From Terriglobia bacterium (lineage in GTDB: Bacteria > Acidobacteriota > Terriglobia > JAIQFV01): a stretch of 64,000 nucleotides of DNA. The DNA is taken from NCBI GenBank assembly GCA_020072965.1, contig JAIQFY010000009.1, forward strand, positions 9,649 to 73,648. The letters are read 5' to 3'. The number at the start of each line of letters is the position of its first letter. Position 1 is the stretch's first letter. Under the pieces are notes generated by a model. The model was not told the DNA's origin. It made no database searches and saw nothing but the letters and a program-made list of their open reading frames with translations. The translations under genes and the position numbers were made by a program. Shown here in pieces: positions 15,443-63,494 of this stretch.

Positions 15443-15552
15443 ACGAAGTCAGAGTTCAGAAGTCAAAAGTCGGAGGTCAGATATCAGAGATCGTGCTCCT
15501 TGCGCTCTTAAATCTGACTTCCGACTTCTGACTTCTGACTTCCGACCTCCTT
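15443..15552. repeat. imperfect ~45-nt-arm palindrome built from TCRRARG/GACTTCY heptamers, intercistronic between boxC and boxB
   Basis: Left arm GAAGTCAGAGTTCAGAAGTCAAAAGTCGGAGGTCAGAT. Right arm ATCTGACTTCCGACTTCTGACTTCTGACTTCCGACCTCC. Period 7, read from sequence. Confidence 0.6.
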
Positions 15553-18575: not shown

Positions 18576-18907
18576 CAAGCTGAGATGATATAACATGTTA
18601 TCGATGTGATTTCCCACACTCTTTTTGAGCTTCTTGTTATCTATTGCATCAATGGATTTCTTCGCAGGGAATGCAGGTTATTCTCCAACAACAGGCTTGG
18701 ACAGCAGTGGGGTGTATCTTATCGACTGGAATCCTCGAGACAAGCTCGGCGAGATGGCACGCGGAAAGGGAATCCATGACTCTGTTTGCCACATAGACCT
18801 GCTGAATGTGACAACCAAAACATGAGGGGTCAGGCACCACCATTCGACAATTGCGATAAAAAGAGAACGTAAGCTCGCTTGCTTCTCCCCTAAGAATTTG
18901 CTGAGTT

Positions 18908-19259
18908 GTCGAATGTCGGTGCCTGACCCGAATGGCGCTTAGACCCGAATGGCGCTTAGTTAAGAAATTGAGATGGAGATTGATCCGCTTCCCTGAAGGG
19001 GAAGTCTTCAATAGCCCAGGGTTGGCCGCCTTGCGGCCTACCCTGGGTGGGGATCGCCCGAAGAGAAGAAGGAACCCTGAAGGGGTTCCTTCCCCACGAG
19101 GATCTGGGTTCGATCCAGCCAAAATATGATCAAAGACTCCTCCGGCCCCCCCTGCGCGGTGACTGGGACTGTCATAAACCTGTTCTCTGGGATGGGGCTA
19201 GATCCGTTTTACCATTCTCTTAACTTAGCGCCATTCGGAGTCAGGCGCCGACATTCGAT
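18908..19259. mobile_element. MITE-like ~350-bp element with ~35-bp terminal inverted repeats and a highly structured interior
   Basis: Left end GTCGAATGTCGGTGCCTGACCCGAATGGCGCTTAG, followed by a duplicated ACCCGAATGGCGCTTAG. Right end CTAAGCGCCATTCGGAGTCAGGCGCCGACATTCGAT, its reverse complement. Interior hairpins: CTTCCCtgaaGGGGAAG, CCCAGGGT...ACCCTGGG, GGAACCCtgaaGGGGTTCC. Solo copies of the terminal-repeat core lie at 18826-18848 and 19949-19971. Confidence 0.45.
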
Positions 19260-45393: not shown

Positions 45394-45529
45394 GTCAGCC
45401 GGCGTCGGTCTTCACACCCTTCATTTCCAAGAATGTCAACCGCTCCGGAATGCCGGAGTGATTCTTATTTTTACCAGGATTCCTAAGTTGGCCCCTGTTT
45501 TAAGCCGCGCAGCGGCGAAATAAAGTAAC

Positions 45530-46262
45530 CTGGGGCGTGAGCCTCAGGACCGGGCGACAAGAATAGAATGACAGTCCGCCTTGGCGGACGAAAGAGCGCG
45601 ACAGGAGCGTGGATGCCAACCTAAATCAGTGTTACAATTCAGTGGCGTGATTCCCCCCAGAAGGTCTCAGTAAACCCACATCCCCCGAACAGAGGTCCTC
45701 ACATGGCCACGAGTTATACATCCCTGCGTTTTCACGTTCTCTTCAGTACCAAGAATCGTATGAGATGGATTACAAAAGAATGGGAAGAGGAGCCCTACTC
45801 CTACCTCGCGGGCATCCTTCGGGAAGAACGAGGCCGGCTTCTGAGGGGAACGGAATGGACGACCATGTTCATCTTCTCCTCGTGCTCAGGGCTGACCAGT
45901 CCCTCACCGAGATCATGCGGATCTTGAAATCAAATTCCTCGAGGTGGATTCATGAAAAATCGAGGGAGCGCTGGAGGTTTGAATGGCAACGTGGATATTT
46001 CGGGGTCACAGTGACCAAGTCCCAGGTGGAGCGAGTCCGGCAATACATCAAAAATCAAAAGCAGCACCACCAGCGAGTCAGTTTTCAGGAGGAATTTTTG
46101 AGGTTGCTCAAGGCACATCAAATTGAATTCGACGAACGTTATGTTTGGAAATAATGATCCGGGCATAACTGTCGTCCGCCAAGGCGGACTCAATCTTCTC
46201 CTATTGCACCGAAACCTGAGGCTCACGCCTCAGGCTACGAATAGGCCGTCCGCACAAGGCGG
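45530..46262. mobile_element. IS200/IS605-type (RAYT-like) element: tnpA flanked by inverted hairpin-containing ends
   Basis: Upstream GCGTGAGCCTCAGG...AGTCCGCCTTGGCGGACGAAAG. Downstream GTCGTCCGCCAAGGCGGACT...CCTGAGGCTCACGCC, its reverse complement. An extra GTCCGCACAAGGCGGAC hairpin lies at 46246. Confidence 0.5.
45703..46154 (+). pseudogene. tnpA: IS200/IS605-family Y1 (HuH) transposase TnpA, interrupted by an apparent frameshift near 45840-45860
   Basis: Frame 1 gives SLRFHVLFSTKNRMRWITKEWEEEPYSYLAGILREERG. Frame 2 gives GMDDHVHLLLVLRADQSLTEIMRILKSNSSRW...WQRGYFGVTVTKSQVERVRQYIKNQ, carrying the HuH and catalytic Tyr motifs. Together they cover a complete TnpA. Confidence 0.6.
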
Positions 46263-46315
46263 ACTCTAAACCGACATGTTCAAATGTCTATCACCCTCAA
46301 GAGATTACGCACTCT

Positions 46316-47260
46316 TCAGGAGTTTTGTCGATTGGTGTGCAGCTTCCGAAACGCAACCGGAGGGAATTGATACTCAGAAGCCAGCTCCGGGTGAATCATC
46401 ACTGCCAGCATCTCGAGGCTGTCGATGATGCGCGGTCCCGGGCGGCTGAAGTACTGGTTTCCGTCGGCGATGAAGACGTGCTGGTTGAGAACGGCCGGTA
46501 GACATTGCCACTCCCTGACACTCTTCAACTGCGCGACTTCGCGGAGAGTCCGGTCGATCGAGAATCCGCAGCAGCTGATGACAACGATTTCTGCGGCAAA
46601 ATCGAGGATCTCCTGGCACTCCACACGCCGCGAGGGTTGACCCGACTTCGCGATTCGATCCACTCCGCCGGCAATCTCAACCAATTCACCATTCCAGTGT
46701 CCACCGGAAAACGGCGGATGGAGCCACTCCATCAGGAAGGTCCGCGGGCGCGTGTCAATCCGCGAAACCAGTGATCTCACCCGTTCGACACGGCGCTGGA
46801 GCAAGCTGATGACCGCTTCGCCTTGTTCAGAGCACCCAGTCATTCGGGCTACGGTCCGGATGTTCTCAAAGATATCCTGCAACCGCATCGGCTCCAGATT
46901 GACCACCCGGGGCGAATGGACCAACCCTTTGACTGCATCTTTCACATAATCGTACGAAACCGCGCACACGCTGCAAAGCTGTTGAGTCAGGATCAGATCC
47001 GGCTGAAGGCGCTTCAGTAATTCAAAATCCAAATCATAGAGCGTTCCCGCCTCGTGCAACTTTTCCCTGACCTCATGGTCGATCGTTTCGCTCGGCTGGT
47101 CCGAATCCACCAGCGCCCGGGTAATCCGGGGCTTGCTTCGAGCCTCAACCGGAAAGTCGCACTCGTGGGACACGGCGACCAGGTCATCGCCTAAACCAAG
47201 GGCGTACACAATTTCAGTGGCACTGGGAAGCAGGGAGACGATTTTCATGGCTTGGGGCAA
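46316..47260 (-). CDS. BtuF/FecB-like (class III periplasmic-binding-fold) cobalamin/iron-complex binding protein, no obvious signal peptide
   Basis: MKIVSLLPSATEIVYALGLGDDLVAVSHECDFP N-terminal block typical of BtuF-type binding proteins. Confidence 0.7.
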   Translation of the reverse strand: MPQAMKIVSLLPSATEIVYALGLGDDLVAVSHECDFPVEARSKPRITRALVDSDQPSETIDHEVREKLHEAGTLYDLDFELLKRLQPDLILTQQLCSVCAVSYDYVKDAVKGLVHSPRVVNLEPMRLQDIFENIRTVARMTGCSEQGEAVISLLQRRVERVRSLVSRIDTRPRTFLMEWLHPPFSGGHWNGELVEIAGGVDRIAKSGQPSRRVECQEILDFAAEIVVISCCGFSIDRTLREVAQLKSVREWQCLPAVLNQHVFIADGNQYFSRPGPRIIDSLEMLAVMIHPELASEYQFPPVAFRKLHTNRQNS

Positions 47261-47454
47261 ATCCCATTCTAATCACGAACCCGGATTCGCGAAATTCTTT
47301 TTTTATATGTTTGGGCTATGGAAGAGCTATTTCAGTCCACAGATTACGCCGATCACACCGAGTAAAATCAAGATTTAAAGCAGTCGTTGTTTTTGATATC
47401 CTCACGATTCATCGAAGACGAGATATTTCAAAGACCGGGGACATCAAGGGCAGA

Positions 47455-48288
47455 ATGGCCATTTCAGTCAGCGGCATTTTTCATCATCCGGTGAAATCTG
47501 CCAAGAGCAAGCCGCTAAACCGTGCAGAGATTGGTGTGCGCGGAATTTTGCACGACCGCGAATGGATGGTGGTCGATGAGCGGGGAATGTTCGTGGCGCA
47601 GCGCCAATCTTCGGAGGCTGGTGTCGAAGTCCGGACCATGTGTTTGGTGGACGCCGCCCTCCAGGACAGGCGCCTGGTCCTCACAGCCCCCGGCCTGAGC
47701 TCAATCTCGGTTCCCCTCAGTGGCCCCGATACCCCGGAAGAAGAGGTGCGGGTCTGGGAGCATCAAGCCCGCGGCATCGATCAAGGCGAAGAGGTCTCCC
47801 GTTGGTTGAGTGAACTGCTCGGAAGGGAGAGACCCGGGAAATATCGCCTCATACGAATGTCAAACCATCACGTTCGCCGCGCCAAACAGGGAGATTCACA
47901 GCTGGCCTTCGCCGATGGCTATCCGTTCCTCATTATCTCTCAGGCTTCGCTGGATGATCTGAACAGCCGCCTTTCAGAAGCCCTTCCTATGAACAGGTTT
48001 CGCCCCAACCTCGTTCTTGACGGGTGCGCGCCGTACCAGGAGGATCAAATGGCCTTGATCCGGATCGGCCGAGTCCTTCTCGAGGGCCAGGGGCTATGCG
48101 CACGCTGTCCAACCACGGCCACCAATCAGGAAACCGCCGAGCGCGGCAAGGAGCCGCTCCGCACCCTGGCGACCTACCGCCGGCACCCCAGCGGCGAAGA
48201 CGGTGTCGTGTTCGGGCGTAATTTCAATCATTTGAATCTCGGGACGATCGCGATGGGGGATACCGTTGAAATTCTAGCTGCTGACTGA
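47455..48288 (+). CDS. MOSC-domain protein (YcbX-like: MOSC_N beta-barrel plus MOSC)
   Basis: Start chosen at MAISVSGIFHHPVKS; the ORF track starts at 47311. MOSC block with conserved Cys: LEGQGLCARCPTTATNQETAERGKEPLRTL. Confidence 0.7.
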   Translation: MAISVSGIFHHPVKSAKSKPLNRAEIGVRGILHDREWMVVDERGMFVAQRQSSEAGVEVRTMCLVDAALQDRRLVLTAPGLSSISVPLSGPDTPEEEVRVWEHQARGIDQGEEVSRWLSELLGRERPGKYRLIRMSNHHVRRAKQGDSQLAFADGYPFLIISQASLDDLNSRLSEALPMNRFRPNLVLDGCAPYQEDQMALIRIGRVLLEGQGLCARCPTTATNQETAERGKEPLRTLATYRRHPSGEDGVVFGRNFNHLNLGTIAMGDTVEILAAD

Positions 48289-48515
48289 CTCGCGTCGCCT
48301 CAATGGCACGAGCAACCGGAAATGGTGTTGTCCCGCAAGATCTTCGGAGACCCGTTTAACCGCAAAGATCGCAATGGCGGCCCAAAGATCGCATAAATGC
48401 CTGTGCCTTATTGCGGAGGCATTCTTTTTGCGCTCTTGGCGCCTACTTAGCGAACTCTGCGGTTCGTCTTTAATCCGAATTCCGCACTCCGAAATCCGCA
48501 ATTGATGACCCGCAT

Positions 48516-50834
48516 TCATCTCTTCAGATGGAGTCCGTTTTCTCCACCCAGATTCACCCGCACCCCGGAGACAAAATTCAAACGATAGGCGGGGAATCCG
48601 AGGACCTCTTCATATCGCTGATTCAGCAAATTGTTTATCCTTGCATACCAGGTGACCCCACTGGAGAAGTCGTACGATCCCCCGACGTTGGCAACAACAA
48701 AGCCGGGATTCTTGAGAATGCAGGGGAGCCCCAGATCGCAGGCAAACGTGCCCAAGTTCGGATCCGTGTCGGTCGTCCTCCCCCGCATCAACGCATCGAG
48801 CGAAAGAACCCACCGCCGATGCGTCCACGTCGCAAAGAAAGAGCCGGAATGAGCCGGGCGGCGGATCAACGGATCCCCAACTTTGAAGATCGATTGGGCG
48901 CGGCCGGGATCGCCGTTCAGCGAGAGAATTTCGGAATTCAGATAAGTATACTGGCCGCCCAAACGGATCTTTGAACTGGGCTGCATCGTCACAGAAACCT
49001 CCATGCCTTGCGCGCGAGCATTGCCCAGGTTGTCGGAGCTGAACGTGGAAAGCTGGCGCAAATCCCCCGTCAGGGTGACGATCTGGTCCTCGAACCGATT
49101 GTAGAAGTACGTAACGTCGAAGAGTGCCCGCGAGTTCCACAAGGACACCTCGGCGCCCGTGTCAAAACTCAAGGACCGCTCAGGACGAAGCCTGGGATTG
49201 CTGGTAAATGCGAGCTCAAATCCATTCGGAGCGCGGATCCCGGTCCCCGCCGAACCGTGCAGCCTGACATAGCTGAACGCGTGATCCATCGACCCTGGCC
49301 GGATGAAATAAGCGGCCGACACTCTCGGGTTGGTTGAGACAATGGAGGACGCCGGAAAATTCTGGTCGTGTGAAAAAGGGACGGCAAGGATATCCTCCGT
49401 CCTGAAGTTTTCGATTCGCACGCCAGCCGTTAGAAAGAGCCGCTGCTGCCAATTCCACTGATTCTCGGCAAAGTATCCAAAATTGTTCCGATGAAGAGCG
49501 AAAATCTGGCCCGTCGGATCTGTCACAAAATTATTCAAAAACCTCTCCCGCTGGTATTCAAACCCGAAGGCGAGGGTGTCACCGGGGAAAAGGAGGAGAT
49601 CACTTTCGCTGCGCAAGGTTCCACGAAAGTTATCGCTAAACGAATCTCCCAGGGAAGGGCTTAAGAATCGAAAATTGCGCGAGAGGAAATTTCCCTCAAA
49701 GCGCTGCCTGAATTTTGAAGAGAACTCGTGCTCGAAGTCCAGCCCATAAACATAGTCATTGTTCTTATCGCGGGACTGAAGATCGAGACCGAAGAAGGTG
49801 CTGTTGGGATCGCTTCCGTATGCCCCCGGGGCGCCTGCGTCGTTGGCATTAAGATTGAAATGGAACGCAGCGTGGGTCCGGGGAGACAGGTCCATGCCGA
49901 TTCGCCCGGAAGCATTCTGGTCGCGGTAGTTGTCGTTAAAATTGGCCCCGTCGGAGTCCATGCGCGACAGGTTCAAGGCCCAATTCACGCTCCGCGTCAG
50001 GCCGTTCGCACCCGCGGCCCAGCGCCGCAACATGTAGCTGCCCCCTTCGGCTTGAAACGAGTACCGGGGGGTCCCTTCCCCGCGCTGCGTAATGACATTA
50101 AGGGTTGCCCCCACGGCCTCCGATCCATAGAGGGCGCTCTGCGCACCGCGCACGACTTCGATGCGATCCACATCATCCGCCACCAGATGCGCGAAATCGT
50201 ATCCCAGCCCTCCCCCAAAGTCGTTGAGCTTCACCCCGTCCAACAGCACCAGGTCGTAATTAGCGTCCCCCCCCCGCGCGAAAATCGAGGTCGTCCCACC
50301 ACGGCGGCCGGCCGAACTCACCGTGAGACCCGGGATCCCTCGCAGCGCATCCTGGATGAGGGGAGCGGCAGAGTTTTTCAAGTCCTCCCCCGTAATAATG
50401 CTGACGGAGCTTCCTACTTGCGCCATCGGCTGGTCGATCAACGACGCGCTGACCAGAACGCTATCAGTTCGGGCACTCAGTTGAAGGCCGATCTCAATAG
50501 ATCGCGTCTGACCGGGCTTCAATGGACCGGTGGGCACTGTTCCTGACGAGAATCCGGGCTGACTGACGATCAACTGGTACTCGATCCCTGCCGAAACTTC
50601 AAAGCGGAACCGCCCCTGGCCGTCGCTCCAGTGGGAAAGGGTGGTCCCCAGGGCATCGATGCAACTGATTTGAGCGCCACGAATAACGGCGCCGGATGGA
50701 TCCTTGATCTGACCCTCGATCACGCTGGTCTGAGCGATCAGGGAAAGATGCAAACCCGTCCATAAAATACAGAAGGCGAAGAGACGCACTGCGCGCTTCG
50801 AAACGCTTTGGCTGTGATTCATCAGTTCCTCCAA
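48516..50834 (-). CDS. TonB-dependent outer-membrane receptor with N-terminal carboxypeptidase-regulatory-like domain
   Basis: Signal peptide. CarboxypepD_reg block QTSVIEGQIKDPSGAVIRGAQI...GRFRFE. Plug domain VSASLIDQPMAQVGSSVSII...DALRGIPG. Long beta-barrel. Confidence 0.85.
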   Translation of the reverse strand: MEELMNHSQSVSKRAVRLFAFCILWTGLHLSLIAQTSVIEGQIKDPSGAVIRGAQISCIDALGTTLSHWSDGQGRFRFEVSAGIEYQLIVSQPGFSSGTVPTGPLKPGQTRSIEIGLQLSARTDSVLVSASLIDQPMAQVGSSVSIITGEDLKNSAAPLIQDALRGIPGLTVSSAGRRGGTTSIFARGGDANYDLVLLDGVKLNDFGGGLGYDFAHLVADDVDRIEVVRGAQSALYGSEAVGATLNVITQRGEGTPRYSFQAEGGSYMLRRWAAGANGLTRSVNWALNLSRMDSDGANFNDNYRDQNASGRIGMDLSPRTHAAFHFNLNANDAGAPGAYGSDPNSTFFGLDLQSRDKNNDYVYGLDFEHEFSSKFRQRFEGNFLSRNFRFLSPSLGDSFSDNFRGTLRSESDLLLFPGDTLAFGFEYQRERFLNNFVTDPTGQIFALHRNNFGYFAENQWNWQQRLFLTAGVRIENFRTEDILAVPFSHDQNFPASSIVSTNPRVSAAYFIRPGSMDHAFSYVRLHGSAGTGIRAPNGFELAFTSNPRLRPERSLSFDTGAEVSLWNSRALFDVTYFYNRFEDQIVTLTGDLRQLSTFSSDNLGNARAQGMEVSVTMQPSSKIRLGGQYTYLNSEILSLNGDPGRAQSIFKVGDPLIRRPAHSGSFFATWTHRRWVLSLDALMRGRTTDTDPNLGTFACDLGLPCILKNPGFVVANVGGSYDFSSGVTWYARINNLLNQRYEEVLGFPAYRLNFVSGVRVNLGGENGLHLKR

Positions 50835-50976
50835 ATTTCAAAAGGCCGTTCTCATTTAAAACACATGAGCCTGCATGGCTAATGGCCGTACCAGAATTCG
50901 TTCAACATCGAACCTCGGAATTCACGGGTTTTACCAATAGCGCTTTTCTCTGTGTCCTCCGCGCGGTGAAATCGTC

Positions 50977-51834
50977 TTACTCATTAATCTCTGATCTCTT
51001 CCCCCTCAGAAGTGTCACCCGGGCCGCGCCGGAGATAGGATTAAGGTCGACCAGGAGATCGGAATCAAAGACCTTGCGAAGCCGCTCTTCGGTCAGCACC
51101 TCAGCGGGCGGTCCAACCGCCAGGGGCACACCGGCATTCAAAAGCAGAATGTGATCCGCGAATTCGGCGGCGAGGTTGAGTTCGTGGGTGACCATGAGGA
51201 CGGCCATGCCGTGCTCCCGCGCCAACCGTTCAACCAGCTCAAGTAGCCCCATCTGAAACGCCACGTCGAGGTTGAGGGTCGGCTCATCCAGCAGGAGCAA
51301 TCCTGGGGTTTGCGCCAGGGCACGGGCCAAAATGACCCGCTGGCGCTCACCGCCCGAAAGTTCGTTCATCCATCGCCGCTCGAAGACCGACGCCTCCGTC
51401 ATCTCGAGAGACCGGCGCACGATGGTCAGGTCTTCGTGCGACGCCAGCTGCAATCCATCGAGGAAGGGATGGCGTGCCAGCAGGCAGTATTCAAGGACGG
51501 TCATGGGAAAATGCAACGAGCTTTCCTGGGCCACCACTGCAATTTGCCTCGCCCGCTCGCGATGCCTCATTCGATGGATGTCCACCCCGTTCCATCGGGC
51601 CCATCCGGAGGTGGGCCGGAGCGTCCCGCTCACCAGCTTGAGCAAGGTCGACTTCCCGGAGCCGTTCGGGCCCACAATTGCCGTTACTTCGGAAGTGCGC
51701 ATGGAAAAGGAAACGGGGTGAAGTTGAAATTTGCCCACTTTCACACCCACATCGTGCAGTTCGAGGCATGAAACGCCGGCAGCGGGCGGTTGCGCATCCA
51801 TCCGGGGTTGTGAATGGGAAGAGATCACTGTCAA
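50977..51834 (-). CDS. ABC transporter ATP-binding protein (FecE/BtuD/HmuV type)
   Basis: Walker A GPNGSGKST. Signature LSGGERQRV. Walker B LLLDEP. Confidence 0.85.
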   Translation of the reverse strand: MTVISSHSQPRMDAQPPAAGVSCLELHDVGVKVGKFQLHPVSFSMRTSEVTAIVGPNGSGKSTLLKLVSGTLRPTSGWARWNGVDIHRMRHRERARQIAVVAQESSLHFPMTVLEYCLLARHPFLDGLQLASHEDLTIVRRSLEMTEASVFERRWMNELSGGERQRVILARALAQTPGLLLLDEPTLNLDVAFQMGLLELVERLAREHGMAVLMVTHELNLAAEFADHILLLNAGVPLAVGPPAEVLTEERLRKVFDSDLLVDLNPISGAARVTLLRGKRSEINE

Positions 51835-52847
51835 TCCTCCGCCCGATCGCGTCTTAACAGGTAAATGAACACCGGGGCTCCCGCCAGCGCTGTAATGGCC
51901 CCGACCGGAAGTTCTGTCGGTGCGACGATGGTTCGTGCAATCAGATCGGCCAGCAAAGTCAGCATGGCCCCCAGGATGGCCGTCGATGGCAGCAGCAGTC
52001 GATAATCATTGCCGAAAAGCATTCGTGCGATGTGCGGAACGATTAACCCCACAAAACCGATGGAGCCGCTGAGGGAGACCGCCAGGCCGGTCAGCAGGGC
52101 CGCCAATACAAAGATCGCCCGCTTCACCCATTCGACAGGCACCCCCAGGTGGGCGGCTTCCTGCTCGCCGATGAGCATGACATTGAGATCGCCTGCAAAG
52201 CGGTAGATCAAGACTACCGTCGTGAGCGTTACCAGCGAAATCCATTTCATCGAGGGGACGTGGACACTGTTGAAGTTACCGGTGAGCCAGAAAGTCGTCT
52301 CGCGCAACTGGCCCCCGCTGAGAAAGGGTTGAATGAAAATGATGACGGATGAAAAGAATGACGCCACGATGATCCCTGCGAGAATCAAGGTGTGCGCGGA
52401 GACTCTTCCCTTCCGGCTTCCCAGGGTGTAAACGAGCACAATGGTGATCAAACCCCCGACAAATGCGGCGGCCGGAGTAGGAATTCCCCATTGACCCGCA
52501 AATGCGATCGATAGAATCGCCGCCAGCGCGGCACCACTGGAAACACCCAGGATATGGGGGTCGGCCAGGGGGTTTCTCAAGAGGGCTTGAAAACTGGCGC
52601 CCGCCACCGCCAGGGCCATCCCGACCAGCATGGCGAGATAAATCCTCGGCATCCGCAGGCTGAAGAGTATCGTGGAAGTCTCCGAGGCCGGGTACTCGCC
52701 GGGATGTGTCAATCGGGTCGAAACACTTTCGAGCACGGTGACAAGCGGGATGTGTGTGCTGCCGATGGACAACGCAACCCCCATCATCCCTGCCAAGAGC
52801 AAGAGCAGCAGAATCAAACGCACCGCCATTTTTTTTCGAGTCAGCAT
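51831..52847 (-). CDS. FecCD-family ABC transporter permease (BtuC-like)
   Basis: 338 aa, about 9 TM helices. Stop/start overlap with the ATPase gene. Confidence 0.85.
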   Translation of the reverse strand: MLTRKKMAVRLILLLLLLAGMMGVALSIGSTHIPLVTVLESVSTRLTHPGEYPASETSTILFSLRMPRIYLAMLVGMALAVAGASFQALLRNPLADPHILGVSSGAALAAILSIAFAGQWGIPTPAAAFVGGLITIVLVYTLGSRKGRVSAHTLILAGIIVASFFSSVIIFIQPFLSGGQLRETTFWLTGNFNSVHVPSMKWISLVTLTTVVLIYRFAGDLNVMLIGEQEAAHLGVPVEWVKRAIFVLAALLTGLAVSLSGSIGFVGLIVPHIARMLFGNDYRLLLPSTAILGAMLTLLADLIARTIVAPTELPVGAITALAGAPVFIYLLRRDRAED

Positions 52848-52958
52848 CCGAAGTCTTGTTCACCGCAGAGGCGCCGGGCAAATTGGGGACAGACACCTTG
52901 CTCTGACAAACCTCGAAAATCCATAAGAGTTGGTGTCTGTCCCATCGCTTTTCGTCCC

Positions 52959-53996
52959 TTAATTCGTCTTCTGATGAAAATATTTTGCAAACTGTTCCAA
53001 GGCGTCAAAGAGCCGCGGGCCCGGGCGGCTGGCATTGTCCTCGACTTTGAAGATCCGGTTCGTCTGTACCGCCGTCGTGTGGCTCCAGCCCGGCCAGGAT
53101 CTCATTTGTTCGATCGCGGGAGAGTTTCCGTTATTTTTCGGGAGAAGGATGATTTCCGGGTCGCGCCTTACAATTTCCTCCAGCGACAATTGCGCCCAGT
53201 CCTGTTTTAGATCGCCGCTGATCGATTCGCCCCCCGCAAGCGAAATCAGATCTGTAATATAGGCCCCGCGTCCCGGCACGCTGATCGGGTTGTACCAAAC
53301 CAGGTAGAGCACCCGAGGCCGGGGCCGTCCCGCCACTTGATTCACGACCGCGTCCCGGCGTTCCCGAAGTGAACGAACGAGGGCGTCCGCTTGGGCCTGG
53401 TTTCCGGTCAACGCGCCGACATCCTCCAAGGCTCGGAAGACATCGTCGACAGACGTCGTGTGCACCCCGTAGAGAGGAATGCCAAAGTGCATCAGCTCGT
53501 CCGCCACAGCAATCTTGTTAATCTCAGGCGTTCCAATCACCAGGTCCGGATGCAGAGAGACGATCACTTCGATGTTGGGATCGATCAATCCCCCCACGCT
53601 GGGCTTCTGCCGGACCTCCGGGGGGTAATCACAATAATCGCTGCGGCCCACCACTCTCTGAGCCAAACCGAGGGCATAGAGAAGTTCGGTGACACTCGGG
53701 GCGATGGAAATGATGCGCTGGGGATGCTCGGGAACCATCACCGTCCGGCCGGTTTCGTCGATGACTTTGCGGTTGGCGGCGGGAGCGAGTATTGGAAAAA
53801 TCAACAGTAACCAGAGTGGGAGGAGAAGTTGCCAGTTGCCAGTGGCCAGTTGCCTAAGTGCAGTTGTCAGTTGTCGGTTCTCAGTTCTCAGTTCCAGGTA
53901 GTCAGTTGCCAGTGGCCAGAAAGACCAGGAGCGGGACTTCGAAGGAATACTGTCAACTCTTGAGCTTCTCATTCTGATGATATTCAATGGAGACAT
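52959..53996 (-). CDS. periplasmic substrate-binding protein of the BtuF/FecB type; true start uncertain because the N-terminal 50 codons are encoded by a heptamer repeat
   Basis: Binding-protein blocks IISIAPSVTELLYALGL and VIVSLHPDL. Signal-like LLLPLWLLLIFPILAPAA follows the repeat-encoded WPLATDYLELRTENRQLTTALRQLATGNWQ. Confidence 0.7.
   Translation of the reverse strand: MSPLNIIRMRSSRVDSIPSKSRSWSFWPLATDYLELRTENRQLTTALRQLATGNWQLLLPLWLLLIFPILAPAANRKVIDETGRTVMVPEHPQRIISIAPSVTELLYALGLAQRVVGRSDYCDYPPEVRQKPSVGGLIDPNIEVIVSLHPDLVIGTPEINKIAVADELMHFGIPLYGVHTTSVDDVFRALEDVGALTGNQAQADALVRSLRERRDAVVNQVAGRPRPRVLYLVWYNPISVPGRGAYITDLISLAGGESISGDLKQDWAQLSLEEIVRRDPEIILLPKNNGNSPAIEQMRSWPGWSHTTAVQTNRIFKVEDNASRPGPRLFDALEQFAKYFHQKTN
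53828..53919. repeat. CAGTTSY heptamer-repeat block with internal direct repeat CAGTTGCCAGTGGCCAG (x2)
   Basis: Read from sequence. A related GCTGAT repeat lies at 54041-54082. Confidence 0.55.
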
Positions 53997-54294
53997 GGCA
54001 CATCCAAGAATAAAGGAGCAAGCCTTTCAGCCGGGACTTGCTGAAAGCTGATTGCTGATAGCTGATCGCTGACAGCTGTTCACTTCAAAAAAATACCCCA
54101 TGCATCTTCGTTGGAAAACGCACGGGGCAATAAACTTTGTCCACGGGCCCTTTGACGCGAAGAGCACAACTTTGGAGTCGTGAACCTGAAGGAACAAAGC
54201 CGTTGAGCATCGCTATGGATGCCAGTCCTTCGGCTTCAATCCCTGGGTTTCGCTGGTTCCAGGCAGGTCTCCTGACTTGACCACTCTCGGTTGC

Positions 54295-54445
54295 GTTCTC
54301 GCCTTCCCATCCCGCTGAAGCGGGGCAGTGGTTTTGAACCCGGAAGCGTGGTCTCACAGTGGCGCGACCGTCGCCGACTTTCACGGCGTTCCCTTTTTGA
54401 CTCCGACCTTTCGGAGTGCCTGAAACCGCTGAGAAAGATCACAGT
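54295..54445 (-). ncRNA. cobalamin (B12) riboswitch leading the btuF-permease-ATPase-TonB-receptor operon
   Basis: Minus-strand RNA contains GGGAAcgccGTGaAAgTCggcgacgGTCGCGCCACTGTGA. This matches the GGGAAnnnGGTGnAAnTCC...CCCGCnACTGT core. Further 3' it contains CCACTG...GGGAAGGC (B12 box and 3' element). Position is appropriate for a B12-uptake operon. Confidence 0.5.
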
Positions 54446-54676
54446 GCTTTTTCACGCTACCAAAAATCGGCTCGGGGTGTCAAATGTTTAAAACACTCTA
54501 CCGCGAAAAAAATCAGAGAAGAGTCCTCATTCCTTAAATCGACAAATTGTGAAAAGCGTCTCATGCGCGGATTCGCTCGACATCCCCCCCGGCTGGTGGC
54601 AGAGTGTTGTCGTTTTACGATATATCTTCCCCTCAACCGTTGGAGACTTACAAAACATATTGAACCGGAGGCGTCT

Positions 54677-57331
54677 ATGACGACCATATCCTTCGGGCCC
54701 CTCAAAACTCTCGCTTTGGGAGCGCTATTGGTGGCTGCGCTTTCAAGCAATATCAATGCGGTGTCCCAAACCCGTCAGCTCCCGCGCGAACTCGACTTCG
54801 CTTATTATTCCTTGCGGGACGGTTTTCTCTCCAGCCTCTCTCTCGTCAACAATTCTCCTACCGCTCTATCTTTCGCAGTTACGATCTTCAGCCGTTCCGG
54901 CCAGAGTGTGGTAGGACCGACAACAGATCTCCCTCCTCAAGCAAACACGTCGGTGGATCTTTCTTCGATTCTGCAGGCGGCCTCCATCGATGCAACCGGC
55001 GATTTTTCGGAGGGCAGCGTGGCCGTGCATTATACGGGCAACGGCTTCAAGCCGCTCGTGGGGCAGTTGGTGATTTCCAATGCCGCCACGGGTGCAGCCT
55101 TTACTTCCGAAATGTTTCAAAACCAGGGAGGAAGCGCAAACGGTCCCCCAGCATTGAATTTCATGTGGTGGGAATTCGATCGGGGAGAAACCGCTCGCAT
55201 CGCCGTGACCAACATTTCCGGCAGCCCGGTGGTGGCTGACATTGTGCTCGAATTCAATGGAAGGCATCGACCGGGTTCGGTGCTCTATTTCAGCGCTCAC
55301 CAGACGATGGTGCTTTTGATGTCGGACATCCTGGACAGCCTCGGCGAAACCTCCGGTTCGGCTCCTCAGGGGGGCATCACCATTGTGCCACGAGGCCCCG
55401 GTTCGCCCCTCATCGCCACGGGTTTGTTGAGTAATCCCATCACTGAATCCGCGACTCCCTTGCCCGTTGCGCACCCGGATCGGCAGTTTGTCAGTGCCCA
55501 GCATGCGATCGGCATCCCGGTGGGCGTCCCCTCTCCCGATTCGCCATATGTAGGTTTGGGAACCTTTGAGCCTCACGTGGTCCTCCGAAACCTCGCCGCT
55601 GCTCCACAAAACGTCACACTCACCGTCGAGTATCCCGGCAACGAAGGCACACAGCAACTCGTGCTGCTGCCATTTCCAGTCGAGGCCAACAATACTAAGG
55701 ATGTTTCTTTGGCTTCGGCCCTGCCTCAGTTGCCGGCGCCGCTGCCTTTTGCTTCGGTTCGCATTCAATACGATGGCGCTCCGGACTCCCTGATGGGCCA
55801 GGTGGAGAGCCGCGAGCAGCAAGGGAGATTGGTGGTAAGCAGCCCTCTGGTCAATGAGGGCGATGGGCAGGCAGGGGCGGGCGCCCATCCCTGGCAGGTC
55901 GATCACGGCACGAATTCCTTTCTGTTCTTGACCAACATGGGCGAGAAACCCAGCCGAATCGGTTTTCAGGTGCAGGCCAAAGGAGTAAACTACTATTTGA
56001 CGAATCTGACGCTCCAGCCGCACGAAACCCGCGCCATCGGTATGCGCGAGCTACGGGATCAGCAGCAGGAAGACTTCCAGAAGAACAAGATTCCGGCGGA
56101 CGCCACGGAAGGCTCGGTGCGCTGGGTGCGGTTGGATAATGTGCCGGTCATGGGGCGGTTGGTGGTATTAAAAGGTCAAGAGCACGAAATTGTCAGTCTG
56201 GGCAAACGGGCAGGTGGGACAGCAAGCGGTAGTGGCCAAGCTCCCCCCACGCCGGTCAACTTCATTTGCCTGGACTGTTTTTGCAACTGTCCTGCCGGCT
56301 TGCAGAGTTTGGGCTACGATGCGGGATGTGACGTCTTGAACGTGATTTCCGGCCAGATCTGTGGAATTTCATTTCTGGGCAATTACGCGGACTGCAATGG
56401 GAATTCCAGCTTCTTTGACGATACGCTGTTCTCGATCCTATCGTTGAGTGATACTTCCGTCGCTACCATTTCCAATTCCACGGACCCGGCATCCCTTACC
56501 GGGGTGGGTCCGGGAACCGCTGACCTCATTGCAGCCTTCACAGACAACTCATACCCGTTTGCTCCCAACAGCTGCTCGCCTTTACTGCATACTGTGCGAG
56601 TCGTACCGCGGGTGATCGTAAAACCAAAGGTCGCATTTGTGGGGGGGAATAGGTTCATGTTTGTTGGAAATGACTCCTCTCTAACAAATGCTAACAGCCA
56701 ATCAGTACAAGGAACCCCTCCTGGAGGACAATACGCTTGGAGTTCGAGCAAGACCTCAATCTCTTTTCAGCCCTATCCGAATATACCCGAGATCACCATC
56801 TTGACCGCTCCGAGCTCTGCTGTTAGCAGTTCGCTGTTGGATACAACCATTACCGTAACGTACACGCTGAATCAACAAACCTCCGCTCCTGCCTCAAAGG
56901 CGATTACGGTGCGAAAGTTCAAGTTCGTAACGAACCAGAGCCCTACTGTGCTCCAGCAAAGCAATGGTTACACGGCTTATGCGATATACACTATTTACAC
57001 AAGCCCTTCTGGACAAAAGCTCGAGGAAGGGCTTAGAGATATTTCCGTCGAAGAGAGTGTCAGCACACAGAGCGCAACTCTCAACGGAACACCGTTAACC
57101 CAAGCGCAATTTAACGCCATTTCCTTCGGTCAGGGACCGGGTGCCACCGATGACCACAGCCAGTTCAAAGATGACTTGAGCTTTACCACGCAGTCAGGCA
57201 CTGCATTACTATCCGGACTTGTGATCACTCAAGCCCAAGACCTCCTTGTTACGGGGTGTTTTGTGCGCCACAACACCCTTCAGTACACTTCAAGCACTGT
57301 GACACTCACAAACGGAGGACCGACGAATTAA
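54677..57331 (+). CDS. large secreted hypothetical protein with C-terminal bacterial Ig-like (Big-type) region
   Basis: Start chosen at MTTISFGPLKTLALGALLVAALSSNINA (signal peptide); the ORF track starts at 54416. Beta-rich. Cys-rich patch FICLDCFCNCPAG. Big-like block SVATISNSTDPASLTGVGPGTADLIAAFTD. Confidence 0.6.
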   Translation: MTTISFGPLKTLALGALLVAALSSNINAVSQTRQLPRELDFAYYSLRDGFLSSLSLVNNSPTALSFAVTIFSRSGQSVVGPTTDLPPQANTSVDLSSILQAASIDATGDFSEGSVAVHYTGNGFKPLVGQLVISNAATGAAFTSEMFQNQGGSANGPPALNFMWWEFDRGETARIAVTNISGSPVVADIVLEFNGRHRPGSVLYFSAHQTMVLLMSDILDSLGETSGSAPQGGITIVPRGPGSPLIATGLLSNPITESATPLPVAHPDRQFVSAQHAIGIPVGVPSPDSPYVGLGTFEPHVVLRNLAAAPQNVTLTVEYPGNEGTQQLVLLPFPVEANNTKDVSLASALPQLPAPLPFASVRIQYDGAPDSLMGQVESREQQGRLVVSSPLVNEGDGQAGAGAHPWQVDHGTNSFLFLTNMGEKPSRIGFQVQAKGVNYYLTNLTLQPHETRAIGMRELRDQQQEDFQKNKIPADATEGSVRWVRLDNVPVMGRLVVLKGQEHEIVSLGKRAGGTASGSGQAPPTPVNFICLDCFCNCPAGLQSLGYDAGCDVLNVISGQICGISFLGNYADCNGNSSFFDDTLFSILSLSDTSVATISNSTDPASLTGVGPGTADLIAAFTDNSYPFAPNSCSPLLHTVRVVPRVIVKPKVAFVGGNRFMFVGNDSSLTNANSQSVQGTPPGGQYAWSSSKTSISFQPYPNIPEITILTAPSSAVSSSLLDTTITVTYTLNQQTSAPASKAITVRKFKFVTNQSPTVLQQSNGYTAYAIYTIYTSPSGQKLEEGLRDISVEESVSTQSATLNGTPLTQAQFNAISFGQGPGATDDHSQFKDDLSFTTQSGTALLSGLVITQAQDLLVTGCFVRHNTLQYTSSTVTLTNGGPTN

Positions 57332-60543: not shown

Positions 60544-61587
60544 ATGCGCTGGCTCTTCCTTGTGCATCAGATTCCCCCGCAACCGTCGCAGGCCCGCGTC
60601 AAGACCTGGCGCGCCCTGAAGAAAATGGGGGCGGTGCTGCATCGCAACTCGGTTTACGTCCTTCCCTATTCCAAAGACCAGCATGAAGACTTCGAATGGT
60701 TGTCGCAGCAGATTCGCGACAGCGGGGGCGAGGCGTCGGTGTTTCTTTCGGAGGCTTTGAGCGAGCAGGAGAATCACGAATTGGTTCGACAGTTCCAGAC
60801 GGCCCGGGTCGCTGACTACGCGGATTTGTTACGGCAGTCCGGGATCCTGGGGCAAAAACTGGACGCCAGCCGGGACCGCGCGCATCTCTCCCCGCAGCGC
60901 ATGAAGAAGATGCTTTCAGGTTGGGATGATCTGAAGTCGTCGCTCGAACGGATACGCCGTGTGGATTTTTTTCACTCGAACCGGGCTCGCGTGGTGGAGG
61001 AGCAGGTGGCCCGCCTCGGACGGCAACTGCAGGCGCTGCGCAGCCCGACCCCCGAGGGCTCCCCACCTCCGCTCTCCAGCGGCCGCTGCTCCCCGAAGCA
61101 ATTTCACGGCAAAACCTGGGTGACGCGCCGCGACCTGCATATTGACCGGCTGGCGTCGGCCTGGCTGATCCGCCGTTTCATCGACCCGAAGGCAAAAATC
61201 AAGTTTGCACCGGAAGGCCGAATTCCCCGCGGCCCAATCCCCTTCGATTGCTTTGGCGCGGAATTCAGTCATCACGGGGAGGATTGCACCTTTGAGACCT
61301 TCATCAAGCGATTTCAATTGCACTCCGATTCAGCCCTCGCGGATATTGCCGAAATCGTCCATGACGTCGATCTCAAAGACGAGAAGTTTGGCCGGGCGGA
61401 AGCGACAGGATTCGACCTCGTCATCCAATCGCTCTGTTCGCCAGTCATAGACGATTCCAAGAGGCTGGAAGAGGGGCTCCGGCTGTTCAACCAGCTTTAC
61501 GAATACTTGAAGCAAAAGCACAAGTCTAAAGGGGGGCACGTCCCGGGACGAGTCAACCATCCGTCATCCGGAAGAGTGCCGAAGTGA
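60544..61587 (+). CDS. ChrB-family protein (ChrB N-terminal domain plus C-terminal chromate-resistance domain)
   Basis: WLFLVHQIPPQPSQARVKTWRALKKMGAVLHRNSVYVLP (ChrB_N-like). C-terminal VTRRDLHIDRLASAWLIRRFIDPKAKIKF (Chrome_Resist-like). Confidence 0.7.
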   Translation: MRWLFLVHQIPPQPSQARVKTWRALKKMGAVLHRNSVYVLPYSKDQHEDFEWLSQQIRDSGGEASVFLSEALSEQENHELVRQFQTARVADYADLLRQSGILGQKLDASRDRAHLSPQRMKKMLSGWDDLKSSLERIRRVDFFHSNRARVVEEQVARLGRQLQALRSPTPEGSPPPLSSGRCSPKQFHGKTWVTRRDLHIDRLASAWLIRRFIDPKAKIKFAPEGRIPRGPIPFDCFGAEFSHHGEDCTFETFIKRFQLHSDSALADIAEIVHDVDLKDEKFGRAEATGFDLVIQSLCSPVIDDSKRLEEGLRLFNQLYEYLKQKHKSKGGHVPGRVNHPSSGRVPK

Positions 61588-62795
61588 ACACGGTGAATTC
61601 CCTGAGCCTGCGGAAATCGTCTTCCATCGAGCGCAACGTCATCATCCTGTCAATCGCTGTTTTTCTGGTCGCGTTTGGCGAAGAACTTTGGAACAGTTTT
61701 CTCCCGAAGTACCTGGAAGCGCTAGGCGGTTCCATCGCCCTGATTGCCGTCTTTGGCACCTTCAAAGACTTCCTCGATGCCATTTATCAATACCCCGGAG
61801 GAGTCCTGTCCGACCGACTGGGTGAACGACAGGCCCTGACCTTATTCGCCGGGATGGCGGCCTGCGGTTATGCTATTTACTTAGTGAGCTCGCGACCATG
61901 GATGCTTTTCATCGGAGTTTTATTTGTCATGAGTTGGTCGTCTCTGGCGTCTCCCGCCCTCTTCGCCATGATCGGCGCGACCCTTCCCAGCGAGCGCAGG
62001 ACGCTGGGGTTTTCCTGGCAATCGCTGTTGAAACGACTCCCCATCATCATTGCCCCCGCCCTGGGGGGACTCCTGATCGCTCATGAGGGAATAATTCGCG
62101 GAGTCCGGACAGGGCTGGCCATCGCCATCCTGATGGCTATATTAACGATGATCCTACAACAAAGGTTCTACATTCAAACTCCGACCGCGCCTATCAGTCC
62201 CCCCGGGGGGATGGCCCTGCTCTTCCGGAGTTTTTCACCAGTCCTCAAGCAGCTCCTGTTTTCGGACATCCTCGCGAGGCTCGCTGAGGGGATCGCCGAG
62301 ATCTTCATCGTAATTTATGCCATCAACTTCATCGGCCTGAATCCGAAACAGTTTGGACTGCTCGTCGGCGTCCAAATGACCACCGCCATCGTGGGGTATC
62401 TCCCGGCGGCTGCCCTGACGGTCCGGATCGGACGGAAGCCGCTCGTTTTTTTCACGTTCGTTTGCTTCGCACTTTTCCCCTTGATGGTTGCGTATGCCCA
62501 GAGCTTTCCGCAGATGCTCGGAGCGTTTGTTGTTGGAGGCCTCCGAGAGTTCGGGGAACCCGCGCGGAAAGCGATGATTGTGAACTTTGCGGGTGAACAA
62601 TCCCGGGGGCGCCATGTCGGGCTCTACTATTTAATCCGGAATATTTCAGTGACTCCGGCTGCCGCGGTGGGAGGATGGCTTTGGCATGTTCTATCACCAA
62701 ACGCCACTTTCCATGCTGCCTTCCTGTGCGGGGTGGCCGGAGCCCTCTTCTTCCTTTTTTCTGTTCATGATAAGACACCGGAGGTGAATGCATGA
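61584..62795 (+). CDS. MFS transporter (12 TM)
   Basis: 403 aa, hydrophobic throughout. Start overlaps the upstream stop (ATGA). Stop overlaps the downstream start. Confidence 0.85.
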   Translation: MNTVNSLSLRKSSSIERNVIILSIAVFLVAFGEELWNSFLPKYLEALGGSIALIAVFGTFKDFLDAIYQYPGGVLSDRLGERQALTLFAGMAACGYAIYLVSSRPWMLFIGVLFVMSWSSLASPALFAMIGATLPSERRTLGFSWQSLLKRLPIIIAPALGGLLIAHEGIIRGVRTGLAIAILMAILTMILQQRFYIQTPTAPISPPGGMALLFRSFSPVLKQLLFSDILARLAEGIAEIFIVIYAINFIGLNPKQFGLLVGVQMTTAIVGYLPAAALTVRIGRKPLVFFTFVCFALFPLMVAYAQSFPQMLGAFVVGGLREFGEPARKAMIVNFAGEQSRGRHVGLYYLIRNISVTPAAAVGGWLWHVLSPNATFHAAFLCGVAGALFFLFSVHDKTPEVNA

Positions 62796-63223
62796 GGTGG
62801 ATTACTCGAGAAAATGTGAAAGTTGATCGTGTGGCCTGCCCCTGGTTGATTAAGCGTTTTATCGATTCGAGCGCGGAATTTATCTTTTGTCCAGAAGACC
62901 GTATCGTGGATCGGGCCAGCGAACTACAAGCGACACCTTTTGACGTCCCCAAAAACCCTGCGATTAAATTGAATCATCGCGATGGAAAATGTTCATTTGA
63001 AACTATCCTCGAAGAATTCCACTTAACTGGGAATCCCGCACTGGCGCGACTCGCTCTCATCGTGCATGGGGCCGATATCCCCAGTGAAATGCATGTCGCC
63101 CCCGAAAGCGCGGGGCTCTACGCGATTGCCAATGGATTTTCCAAAACCTGCACCTCCGATGATGAGCGCCTGGAAAAGCAATTTCCGGTTTATGATGCGT
63201 TGTATGAATTCTGCAAGAAGTGA
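62792..63223 (+). CDS. stand-alone chromate-resistance (ChrB C-terminal-like) domain protein
   Basis: MRWITRENVKVDRVACPWLIKRFIDSSAEFIF parallels the C-terminal domain block of the 60544 gene. Confidence 0.65.
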   Translation: MRWITRENVKVDRVACPWLIKRFIDSSAEFIFCPEDRIVDRASELQATPFDVPKNPAIKLNHRDGKCSFETILEEFHLTGNPALARLALIVHGADIPSEMHVAPESAGLYAIANGFSKTCTSDDERLEKQFPVYDALYEFCKK

Positions 63224-63230
63224 GAAGAAG

Positions 63231-63494
63231 TTGTCAGTTCTCAGTTGCCAGTTGCCAGAAGGCAGTTGTCAGTTCTCAGTTCTCAGTTGTCAGTTGAAGT
63301 ACTCCCGCGCTCCGTGACTCTCCAATCTGGCTGCATACGCAACTCACATCCAGTCTGGCGCGACATCGAAAGAAAGGAATTGAGTGGTCAGTTGTGATTG
63401 AGGTCCACTTCCGTTCTCTGACCTCTGGCTATTCTTTCAAACCACTGAAGTCTCTCTCTTCACTGATAACTGAGAACTGAGAACTGACAACTGC
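63231..63494. repeat. CAGTTSY heptamer-repeat arms in inverted orientation flanking ~160 bp
   Basis: Left arm 63231-63297 (GTTGTCAGTTCTCAGTTGCCAGTTGCCAG...CAGTTCTCAGTTCTCAGTTGTCAGTTG). Right arm 63461-63494 (CACTGATAACTGAGAACTGAGAACTGACAACTGC). Confidence 0.55.

Follow-up and report, generated by a model that had tools for sequence, protein, structure and literature searches.

Cobalamin riboswitches of the Rfam family RF00174 are known from the leaders of btuB and btuFCD genes. Hairpins of the repetitive extragenic palindromic (REP) and bacterial interspersed mosaic element (BIME) types stand between the cistrons of enterobacterial operons, as they do after malE or hisJ. In cyanobacteria, short tandemly repeated repetitive (STRR) sequences are 7-bp repeats that give rise to hairpins between genes; they have no known function, but an effect on transcript stability has been proposed (PMC2670836). 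In Haemophilus influenzae, the heptamer contingency locus hmw1A naturally carries at least 11 repeats (PMC12721329). Here we analyze the long, repeat-containing leader of a putative corrinoid uptake operon in a 64,000-nt stretch of DNA (hereafter the window) from a metagenome-assembled genome of Terriglobia (Acidobacteriota), which represents an uncultured lineage from soil. We consider it highly probable that a cobalamin riboswitch stands over this operon, that the heptamer arrays of the leader lie outside the switch, that the array within the open reading frame (ORF) of the first gene is a linker whose frame is kept, and that the partner arm of this array has been lost.

RNA families and protein domains and families were assigned with Rfam covariance models, Pfam and NCBIfam, and the leader was further analyzed with Tandem Repeats Finder (TRF) and RNAalifold. 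Genome and metagenome scans provided related loci (L001-L003, L011, L081, L161-L167 and others; P-numbers denote their proteins), the closest of which show 82% and 75% amino-acid identity to the window. Comparison of array lengths within near-identical strains was feasible only in sister clusters, not in the window's own species.

The regulatory part of the leader contains, in the order of transcription, four elements:

54454-54483, minus strand: predicted sigma-70-type promoter (six-species alignment)
54245-54438, minus strand: cobalamin riboswitch aptamer (RF00174)
54139-54180, minus strand: conserved expression-platform hairpin CGACUCCA..GCUCUUCGCG..AAAGGGCCCGUGGAC (RNAalifold)
54087-54129, minus strand: intrinsic terminator, 16-bp stem (54129-54094) followed by a U7 run (54093-54087) (terminator scan)

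In a scan of the whole window, the aptamer reaches 99.1 bits, the gathering score being 31.5 (E=1.5e-23). Its alignment covers the full model (positions 1-189), and the core GGGAAC..GUGAAA..GCCACUG..GGGAAGG..AAGUCAGGAGACCUGCC, in which AAGUCAGGAGACCUGCC is the B12 box, is visible in it. The orthologous aptamers in L001-L003 score 99.6-102.6 bits. A permissive rescan of positions 53700-54700 gave no further Rfam family even at E<=1, with Cobalamin as the sole match. An earlier note, made from the letters of this DNA, had proposed a B12 riboswitch here and suggested the Rfam cobalamin covariance scan as a check; the scan was passed far above threshold, and all motifs quoted in the note are present. 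The lower bound that it gave for the aptamer, 54295, was 50 nt short of the actual one (54245), and the ~300 nt that it counted from the aptamer to the first ATG (53996) are actually 248 nt. The leader is long because of the extra conserved hairpin in the expression platform and the heptamer repeats in the 5′ untranslated region (5′-UTR) and at the 5′ end of the ORF.

The predicted promoter consists of a -35 element TTGACA (54483-54478), an 18-nt spacer and an extended -10 element TGnTAGCGT (54462-54454). In the alignment of the six species upstream of the aptamer, the TTGACA and the TG/TA..T positions are invariant, and the conserved promoter ends 16 nt upstream of the aptamer. A consensus promoter scan missed it because the -10 element is weak. 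Downstream of the aptamer, the block that contains the expression-platform hairpin is nearly invariant in five species. The pairs of this hairpin show no variation, and therefore covariation speaks neither for nor against it; it may act as a kissing-loop or switching element. The terminator, separated from the aptamer by a spacer of ~115 nt, has a hairpin energy of -25.5 kcal/mol and is conserved in five species, where all changes but one keep the pairing (G-C to G-U).

Based on this anatomy, transcription would initiate near 54447, just before the aptamer, from the conserved TTGACA/TGnTAGCGT promoter, and the aptamer (54438-54245) would bind a corrinoid. With the ligand bound, the 16-bp terminator and its U7 run (54129-54087) would halt transcription, as suggested by the behavior of the family and the arrangement of the elements. 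When B12 is scarce, read-through would yield the mRNA for a BtuF-like substrate-binding protein (SBP), a BtuC-like permease, an ATPase and a TonB-dependent receptor. A transcription start downstream of the aptamer, which the earlier note had named as a finding that would speak against it, is unlikely given the conserved promoter upstream, the start itself being placed from the sequence. The aptamer, assigned to RF00174, thus appears to lie in the 5′ leader of cobalamin-related genes downstream of a predicted promoter.

The operon encodes these four proteins, with a hairpin between the first two genes:

52959-53996, minus strand: BtuF-like periplasmic binding protein (SBP) precursor, Peripla_BP_2 (Pfam)
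52886-52943, minus strand: intercistronic hairpin between the SBP and permease genes, 12-bp stem GGGACAGACACC/GGUGUCUGUCCC (read from the sequence)
51831-52847, minus strand: BtuC-like FecCD permease (PF01032, 305 bits)
50977-51834, minus strand: ABC ATPase, BtuD or corrinoid type (PF00005, 115 bits)
48516-50834, minus strand: TonB-dependent receptor with CarboxypepD_reg, Plug and TonB barrel domains (Pfam; PF07715, PF00593)

Pfam confirms all four gene products proposed earlier, from the SBP (Peripla_BP_2 with 146 bits, residues 95-318) and the FecCD permease to the ATPase and the TonB receptor. As in BtuFCD-type (type II) ABC importers, Peripla_BP_2, FecCD and ABC ATPase proteins are encoded together. 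Most of the best NCBIfam matches in the operon are B12 or corrinoid families (BtuC, corrinoid ATPase, TonB-B12). The permease matches BtuC best (272 bits, below the equivalog cutoff of 461); an exact-protein look-up returned no record for it. For the ATPase, the putative F420-0 ABC ATPase model (235.3 bits) is slightly ahead of the corrinoid ABC ATPase model (231.5), all matches being below cutoff, and the BtuD model gives 151 against a cutoff of 281. The top match of the SBP is a PGF-CTERM-anchored binding-protein model, followed by BtuF (112 against a cutoff of 234). The receptor, which carries an extra N-terminal CarboxypepD_reg domain beside the plug and the 22-strand barrel, matches TonB-B12 best (TIGR01779, 167 bits against a cutoff of 599.7; NF007926, 114 against 836); its likely start is the ATG at 50822, with a GGAGG Shine-Dalgarno sequence at 50832-50828 read from the sequence. 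Hence the four proteins are homologous to BtuF, BtuC, BtuD and BtuB at levels under the naming threshold. On the minus strand, no terminator is predicted inside the operon except one weak site, and the stretch from the SBP stop to the permease start holds the GC-rich intercistronic hairpin, whose loop measures 34 nt. The gene order is identical in L161. The riboswitch, the Pfam domains and the NCBIfam matches together support the uptake of B12 or corrinoids that had been proposed for these genes, and the riboswitch with its operon represents a known system in an ordinary, well-supported form.

The unusual part of the leader is formed by two heptamer arrays that follow the terminator:

54040-54078, minus strand: 5′-UTR heptamer array, GCTGATA x5.6 (CAGCNAU x ~6 on the mRNA strand) (TRF)
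53827-53919, minus strand: in-ORF heptamer array, AGTTGCC x13.3 (GGCAACU-type on the mRNA) (TRF)

The last units of the 5′-UTR array (54049-54040) pair with 54031-54021 in a small predicted hairpin, and its 3′-most units are kept in L001, L002, L163 and L165. The second array lies within the SBP gene and encodes ~31 amino acids of degenerate QLATGNW-like heptads. It follows a peptide of 19 codons and directly precedes the hydrophobic core of the signal peptide, LLLPLWLLLIFPILAPAA (53828-53775), so that the protein consists of an N-terminal region of ~56 amino acids, the core and the mature domain. The start of this gene is called inconsistently. The protein has 345 amino acids from the ATG at 53996, the start chosen by other gene callers, and 337 amino acids from the second ATG at 53972, where the NCBI annotation starts and from which the window ORF matches an identical recorded protein (MBZ5535673.1, 'cobalamin-binding protein'); within single 90% identity clusters of relatives, the lengths vary from 296 to 429 amino acids. 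The window shares the first ATG with L001, L002, L081, L163 and L165.

Several observations argue that the array is translated. Across it, the SBP frame alone is open and the other two frames hold 3 and 2 stops, which bears out the earlier statement that the array is in frame with the ORF. In L001 and L002, no ATG, GTG or TTG lies in frame between the array and the hydrophobic core, except a TTG that would leave ~10 residues, and the same is true for the window. Since a periplasmic SBP needs a signal peptide, translation therefore most probably starts upstream and passes through the array. In the 19 codons upstream of the array, the synonymous change (0.36-0.54 per site) exceeds the non-synonymous change (0.12-0.35 per site) in all six pairs compared, and the array-free relatives L081, P0008 and P0009 keep the long N-terminal region with a recognizable motif. 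The strongest evidence for a translated, frame-locked array appears to be its length, measured as the distance from the conserved Phe-Trp (FW) codons to the Asp-Glu-Thr-Gly (DETG) codons in seven alleles:

Window: 162 nt
L163: 141 nt
L165: 99 nt
L164: 204 nt
L001: 162 nt
L167: 183 nt
L002: 120 nt (from the P0132 sequence)

All seven distances are 15 modulo 21, and thus the differences are whole multiples of three heptamers (21 nt). An example is provided by L001 and L167, whose leaders otherwise look identical and whose arrays differ by exactly three units. The copy number varies even inside 90% identity clusters of proteins, and only frame-preserving changes were seen. A natural explanation is that only changes of three units survive because the array is translated. 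We therefore describe the in-ORF array as a probable length-polymorphic linker, translated as a degenerate 7-residue repeat ahead of the signal-peptide core.

Two other readings of this array compete with the translated linker. The first takes it for a part of the 5′-UTR, with the true SBP start downstream of 53827 and an accidental in-frame extension; such an arrangement would agree with the intergenic position of nearly all other arrays of this class (see below), with the lack of a Shine-Dalgarno sequence at the upstream SBP ATGs, and with the NCBI start of the L003 orthologue, which is placed downstream (P0013, 260 amino acids). However, the TTG that remains as the only canonical in-frame start after the array would leave ~10 residues ahead of the mature domain, not enough for export, and an accidental extension would account neither for a frame that is open through the arrays of all seven alleles with the other two closed, nor for the excess of synonymous change in the upstream peptide and its recognizable presence in array-free relatives. 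We consider this reading improbable. Hardly better placed is the slipped-strand phase variation suggested in the earlier note, in which gain or loss of a single unit would break the SBP frame or shift the start and so toggle B12 uptake within populations. As in contingency loci, a unit whose length is not divisible by three (7 nt, x13.3) is indeed repeated inside an ORF and upstream of the signal-peptide core, so that a change by one or two units would break the frame; moreover, copy number differs between proteins of one 90% identity cluster, as the note had anticipated, and other Acidobacteriota loci hold perfect arrays of 8-12 units, indicating active slippage in the phylum. But the variation proceeds by 21-nt steps and keeps the frame in 7/7 alleles, with no out-of-frame length allele among them, an outcome with a chance of ~(1/3)^6 if the frame were neutral. 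The window array has no long perfect tract: agreement with its own consensus is 74%, and perfect repetition extends over at most 18 nt (2.6 units). An independent Logan assembly is identical over 4038 bp including both arrays, and arrays of the same class are mostly intergenic, where a frame is meaningless. An on/off switch by slippage is thus not supported by these sequences and is improbable.

Some points weigh against the riboswitch-and-linker explanation. Ligand binding, transcription start and termination are all inferred. No convincing anti-terminator was found: duplex searches gave weak candidates only, the best of which joins the terminator's 5′ arm to the aptamer core at only -15.6 kcal/mol. 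The NCBIfam matches to B12 families are all below their equivalog cutoffs, and therefore substrate specificity rests mainly on the riboswitch. The frame argument relies on seven alleles that share ancestry, one of the 21-nt steps can be explained by a local 21-nt direct repeat, and consensus assemblies would hide out-of-frame minority alleles within populations. Finally, the proposed SBP start codon has no Shine-Dalgarno sequence, and a region of ~56 residues ahead of a signal-peptide core is unusual.

In some relatives, the in-ORF array has a partner. In L161, L163, L164, L165 and L167, an inverse array (arm A) begins within a few nucleotides of the terminator U-run and can pair with the in-ORF array (arm A′); the arms measure 31-59 nt and are 77-97% complementary. 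The predicted long-range duplex of arms A and A′ encloses the start codon, with z-scores of -5.5 (L161), -4.9 (L163) and -4.7 (L164); in L001 the pair is only partial (z -1.85). The arms co-vary between lineages, being GGUGCCA/UGGCACC in L164 and CAGUUGY/RCAACUG in L161, L163 and L165, and in L165 the complementarity (92%) extends past the arrays into unique flanks. The leaders of the window, L002, L081 and L003 have no inverted repeats and no arm A, and the window leader folds no better than its shuffled versions (z +0.5). A conserved RNA structure joining the two arrays of the window was rejected on these grounds. Most probably, the window leader has lost arm A, and by these folds no such duplex would form here; the arm A/A′ structure appears to be gained and lost quickly among lineages. 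A separate observation concerns L166, a 1036-bp ENA contig from the P0004 cluster that starts in CAGTTGY units of the arm A type and reaches arm A′ after only 24 nt. It does not have the internal segment of ~190 nt seen in L161, being either a deletion variant or a fold-back assembly artefact, and was not used as evidence.

The paired arrays admit two functional interpretations. In one, which is compatible with the riboswitch and the translated linker, they form an RNA module whose 30-60 bp A/A′ duplex around the start codon would add a second layer of control via RNase III, transcript stability or translation coupling, the window version having decayed. The duplexes predicted in L161, L163 and L164, the co-variation of the arms between species and the complementarity that reaches the unique flanks in L165 agree with such a role. 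There are also precedents, since the heptamer hairpin in the 5′-UTR of hmw1A is processed by RNase III (PMC12721329) and the hairpins of cyanobacterial STRRs have been proposed to stabilize transcripts (PMC2670836). On the other hand, the window, L002, L081 and L003 lack the pair and L001 has it only in part, and therefore the module is dispensable; the co-variation could stem from copying, that is, inverted duplication or gene conversion, rather than from selection; and no common protein-binding site is evident, because the unit sequences differ widely between loci. We regard such a module as possible but on balance doubtful. In the other interpretation, the inverted arrays would serve as recombination sites for inversion or cassette exchange of a start-codon or promoter segment, as in invertons. 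Inverted repeats of 30-60 bp do flank segments of 150-220 bp near the 5′ ends of genes, and a pair in L003 flanks an AT-rich segment just upstream of a second riboswitch. L161 keeps both arms, and the segment that they enclose is unrelated to that of the others, brings a Shine-Dalgarno sequence and an ATG of its own and goes with a different N-terminus. Yet no pair of contigs in opposite orientations was found (the leaders of L161 and L162 look the same by eye), the differences in unit sequence between loci argue against a site-specific invertase, and the window leader has one arm only. Inversion between the arms was rejected directly: in local alignments with all other leaders, the internal segment of L161, forward and reverse-complemented, scores 14-20, a background level, against 58-139 for true orthologues. 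Recombination of this kind is therefore very improbable. As for the L003 locus itself (66% identical), its second cobalamin riboswitch (9830-10038, 76 bits) lies directly upstream of the TonB receptor, and at 9634-10081 inverted AGACCCA/GGGTCTT arrays flank the AT-rich segment of 145 nt, the right arm abutting the 5′ end of the aptamer.

The repeats, which the earlier note had treated as an oddity of this leader, are not peculiar to it. TRF finds six heptamer arrays at five loci of the window, the short array downstream of the receptor gene being at a distance of 14 nt from its stop codon:

15445-15549: heptamer arrays, inverted pair (TRF)
48472-48502: short heptamer array AATCCGC x4.4 (TRF)
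53827-53919 and 54040-54078: the leader arrays described above (TRF)
63229-63296 with 63462-63494: heptamer arrays, inverted pair (TRF)

In a stricter test (at least 80% identity at lag p over 28 nt, periods 4-12, with 50 Markov simulations as controls), the window contains 4 period-7 loci and none with any other of these periods, and the simulations contain none (0 in 50). Applied to other loci, the same test gave:

Acidobacteriota loci, 570 kb: 12 period-7 arrays; other periods 0-1
Soil or peat metagenome loci, 347 kb: 17 period-7 arrays; other periods 0
Rokubacteria, Chloroflexota and others, 328 kb: 0 period-7 arrays; other periods 0-1

Thus, the leader repeats belong to a period-7 class that occurs across the Acidobacteriota loci sampled. 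The unit sequences differ widely among loci (CAGTTSY, CAGCNAT, GACTTCY, GAAGGCR, CCCGARC and others); the arrays share the period of 7 and the tendency to form inverted pairs. Inverted heptamer hairpins directly follow the SBP stop codon in L011, L023, L026, L116 and L122. Two nearly perfect arrays were observed in Acidobacteriota-like metagenome loci, TTTGAGA with 11.9 perfect units (L101, 4836-4922) and GAAGGCG with 7.9 perfect units (L105, 5896-5964), and therefore expansion seems recent and ongoing in the phylum. Arrays of this class expand and contract quickly, often as hairpin-forming inverted pairs. In the literature (subscription journals being outside the coverage), we found no description of heptamer repeats in Acidobacteria.

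The two inverted pairs of the window outside the B12 leader differ in position. At 15445-15489/15505-15549, GAAGTCA-type and GACTTCY-type arrays form arms of 45 nt that are 82% complementary and enclose a 15-nt loop; this hairpin is located between two minus-strand genes, and the stop codon of the gene at 15562-17259 precedes it by 12 nt. At 63262-63294/63462-63494, two CAGTTSY arrays stand 167 nt apart in inverted orientation, with 97% complementarity over 33 nt; the in-ORF array of the B12 leader is built from the same unit family. The predicted stem of ~35 bp (z -5.5) ends 20 nt upstream of the AAGGAG and ATG of a secreted-looking protein. A repeat cluster of another kind at 18827-19258 contains a 17-nt tandem GACCCGAATGGCGCTTA x2.1 (18925-18959) and the inverted repeats 18827-18850/18906-18929, 18909-18927/19240-19258 and 18934-18970/19213-19249.

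A broader hypothesis combines these observations into a class of actively expanding heptamer arrays in Acidobacteriota, not yet described, in which co-varying inverted pairs would give rise to long-range duplexes in the mRNA, at start codons or promoters. At the B12 locus, they would constitute a fast-evolving second regulatory layer after the riboswitch, the in-ORF arm being limited to 21-nt steps and giving rise to a length-variable heptad peptide. We put this forward only tentatively, as a rather improbable reading.

Downstream of the operon lie two genes that had been noted earlier and are confirmed by Pfam. One encodes a second Peripla_BP_2 (BtuF-like) protein (46316-47260, minus strand), which starts MKIVSLLPSATE, with the domain from residue 7 and no signal peptide, and therefore would be cytoplasmic; no upstream extension is possible, and the gene stands back to back with the other one:

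47311-48288, plus strand: MOSC_N and MOSC protein (Pfam)

On the other side of the leader, an ORF of 884 amino acids (54677-57331, plus strand) is transcribed divergently and has a GGAGG Shine-Dalgarno sequence; it showed no match in Pfam or NCBIfam. In L161, the riboswitch adjoins ChrB/MFS genes, which in the window are at 60544-63223, and therefore ~6 kb appears to be inserted in the window.

Beyond the second BtuF-like gene, the window contains an IS200-like Y1 transposase gene (Pfam Y1_Tnp, ORF 45765-46154), with an earlier ATG by eye near 45704 and a possible frameshift. An Acido-Lenti-1 RNA match (45503-45548, minus strand) flanks this gene, an inverted copy of its first hairpin is found at 46215-46234 (plus strand), and GTCCGCC..GGCGGAC hairpins occur at 45574-45589, 46174-46189 and 46248-46264. 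The region 45503-46264 looks like an arrangement of REP elements with a REP-associated tyrosine transposase (RAYT), and therefore Acido-Lenti-1, listed in Rfam as an sRNA, may be a transposase-associated repeat.

The riboswitch and its operon add another well-supported case of B12-regulated corrinoid uptake, in an uncultured soil lineage of Terriglobia. The more useful result concerns the repeats: heptanucleotide arrays, known mainly from cyanobacteria, are present across the Acidobacteriota loci sampled, and the in-ORF array is a clean natural example of a 7-nt repeat under selection for the reading frame, changing in 21-nt steps only. We regard as mildly new the STRR-like class in Acidobacteriota, the 21-nt-step evolution in a coding region, and, in sister lineages, the co-variation of the inverted arms that surround a start codon. 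Should the paired arrays prove functional, they would amount to an RNA-structure module that evolves rapidly on top of a riboswitch; if they are non-functional, they still matter for annotation, given the inconsistent calls of the SBP start. Heptamer repeats are also likely to disrupt short-read assemblies.

Compared with the RF00174 systems upstream of btuB and btuFCD, the locus has the same full aptamer with a B12 box, a place in the leader of importer and receptor genes and a strong terminator. Nothing essential differs; the window has a spacer of ~115 nt with an extra conserved hairpin, and its leader runs 90 nt past the terminator, with a heptamer array, to a start that lacks a Shine-Dalgarno sequence. 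The likeness to REP and BIME hairpins is one of placement: inverted heptamer hairpins of relatives follow the SBP stop, and the 12-bp hairpin of the window occupies the same position. The sequences are unrelated, however, the arms are made of tandem 7-mers, and no link to a RAYT transposase has been shown for the heptamers. With the (ATCTTTC)n array of hmw1A, the locus shares a heptamer array transcribed in a leader; in relatives of the window, this array supplies one side of a long hairpin. In hmw1A, at least 11 units make up a long perfect tract that is non-coding and grades expression by its length (PMC12721329), whereas the window array is degenerate (at most 2.6 perfect units) and, most probably, translated, frame-locked and without a pairing partner. 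The closest formal parallel is provided by the cyanobacterial STRRs, with which the window class shares 7-nt tandem units, many dispersed and mostly intergenic sites, and inverted arrays that form hairpins. It differs from them in its host (Acidobacteriota, not cyanobacteria), in unit sequences that are different and very diverse, and in one coding array limited to 21-nt steps; the inverted arrays occur elsewhere in the window and in the leaders of relatives, but not in the B12 leader of the window. The period-7 arrays closely resemble STRRs in form, a resemblance rather than membership.

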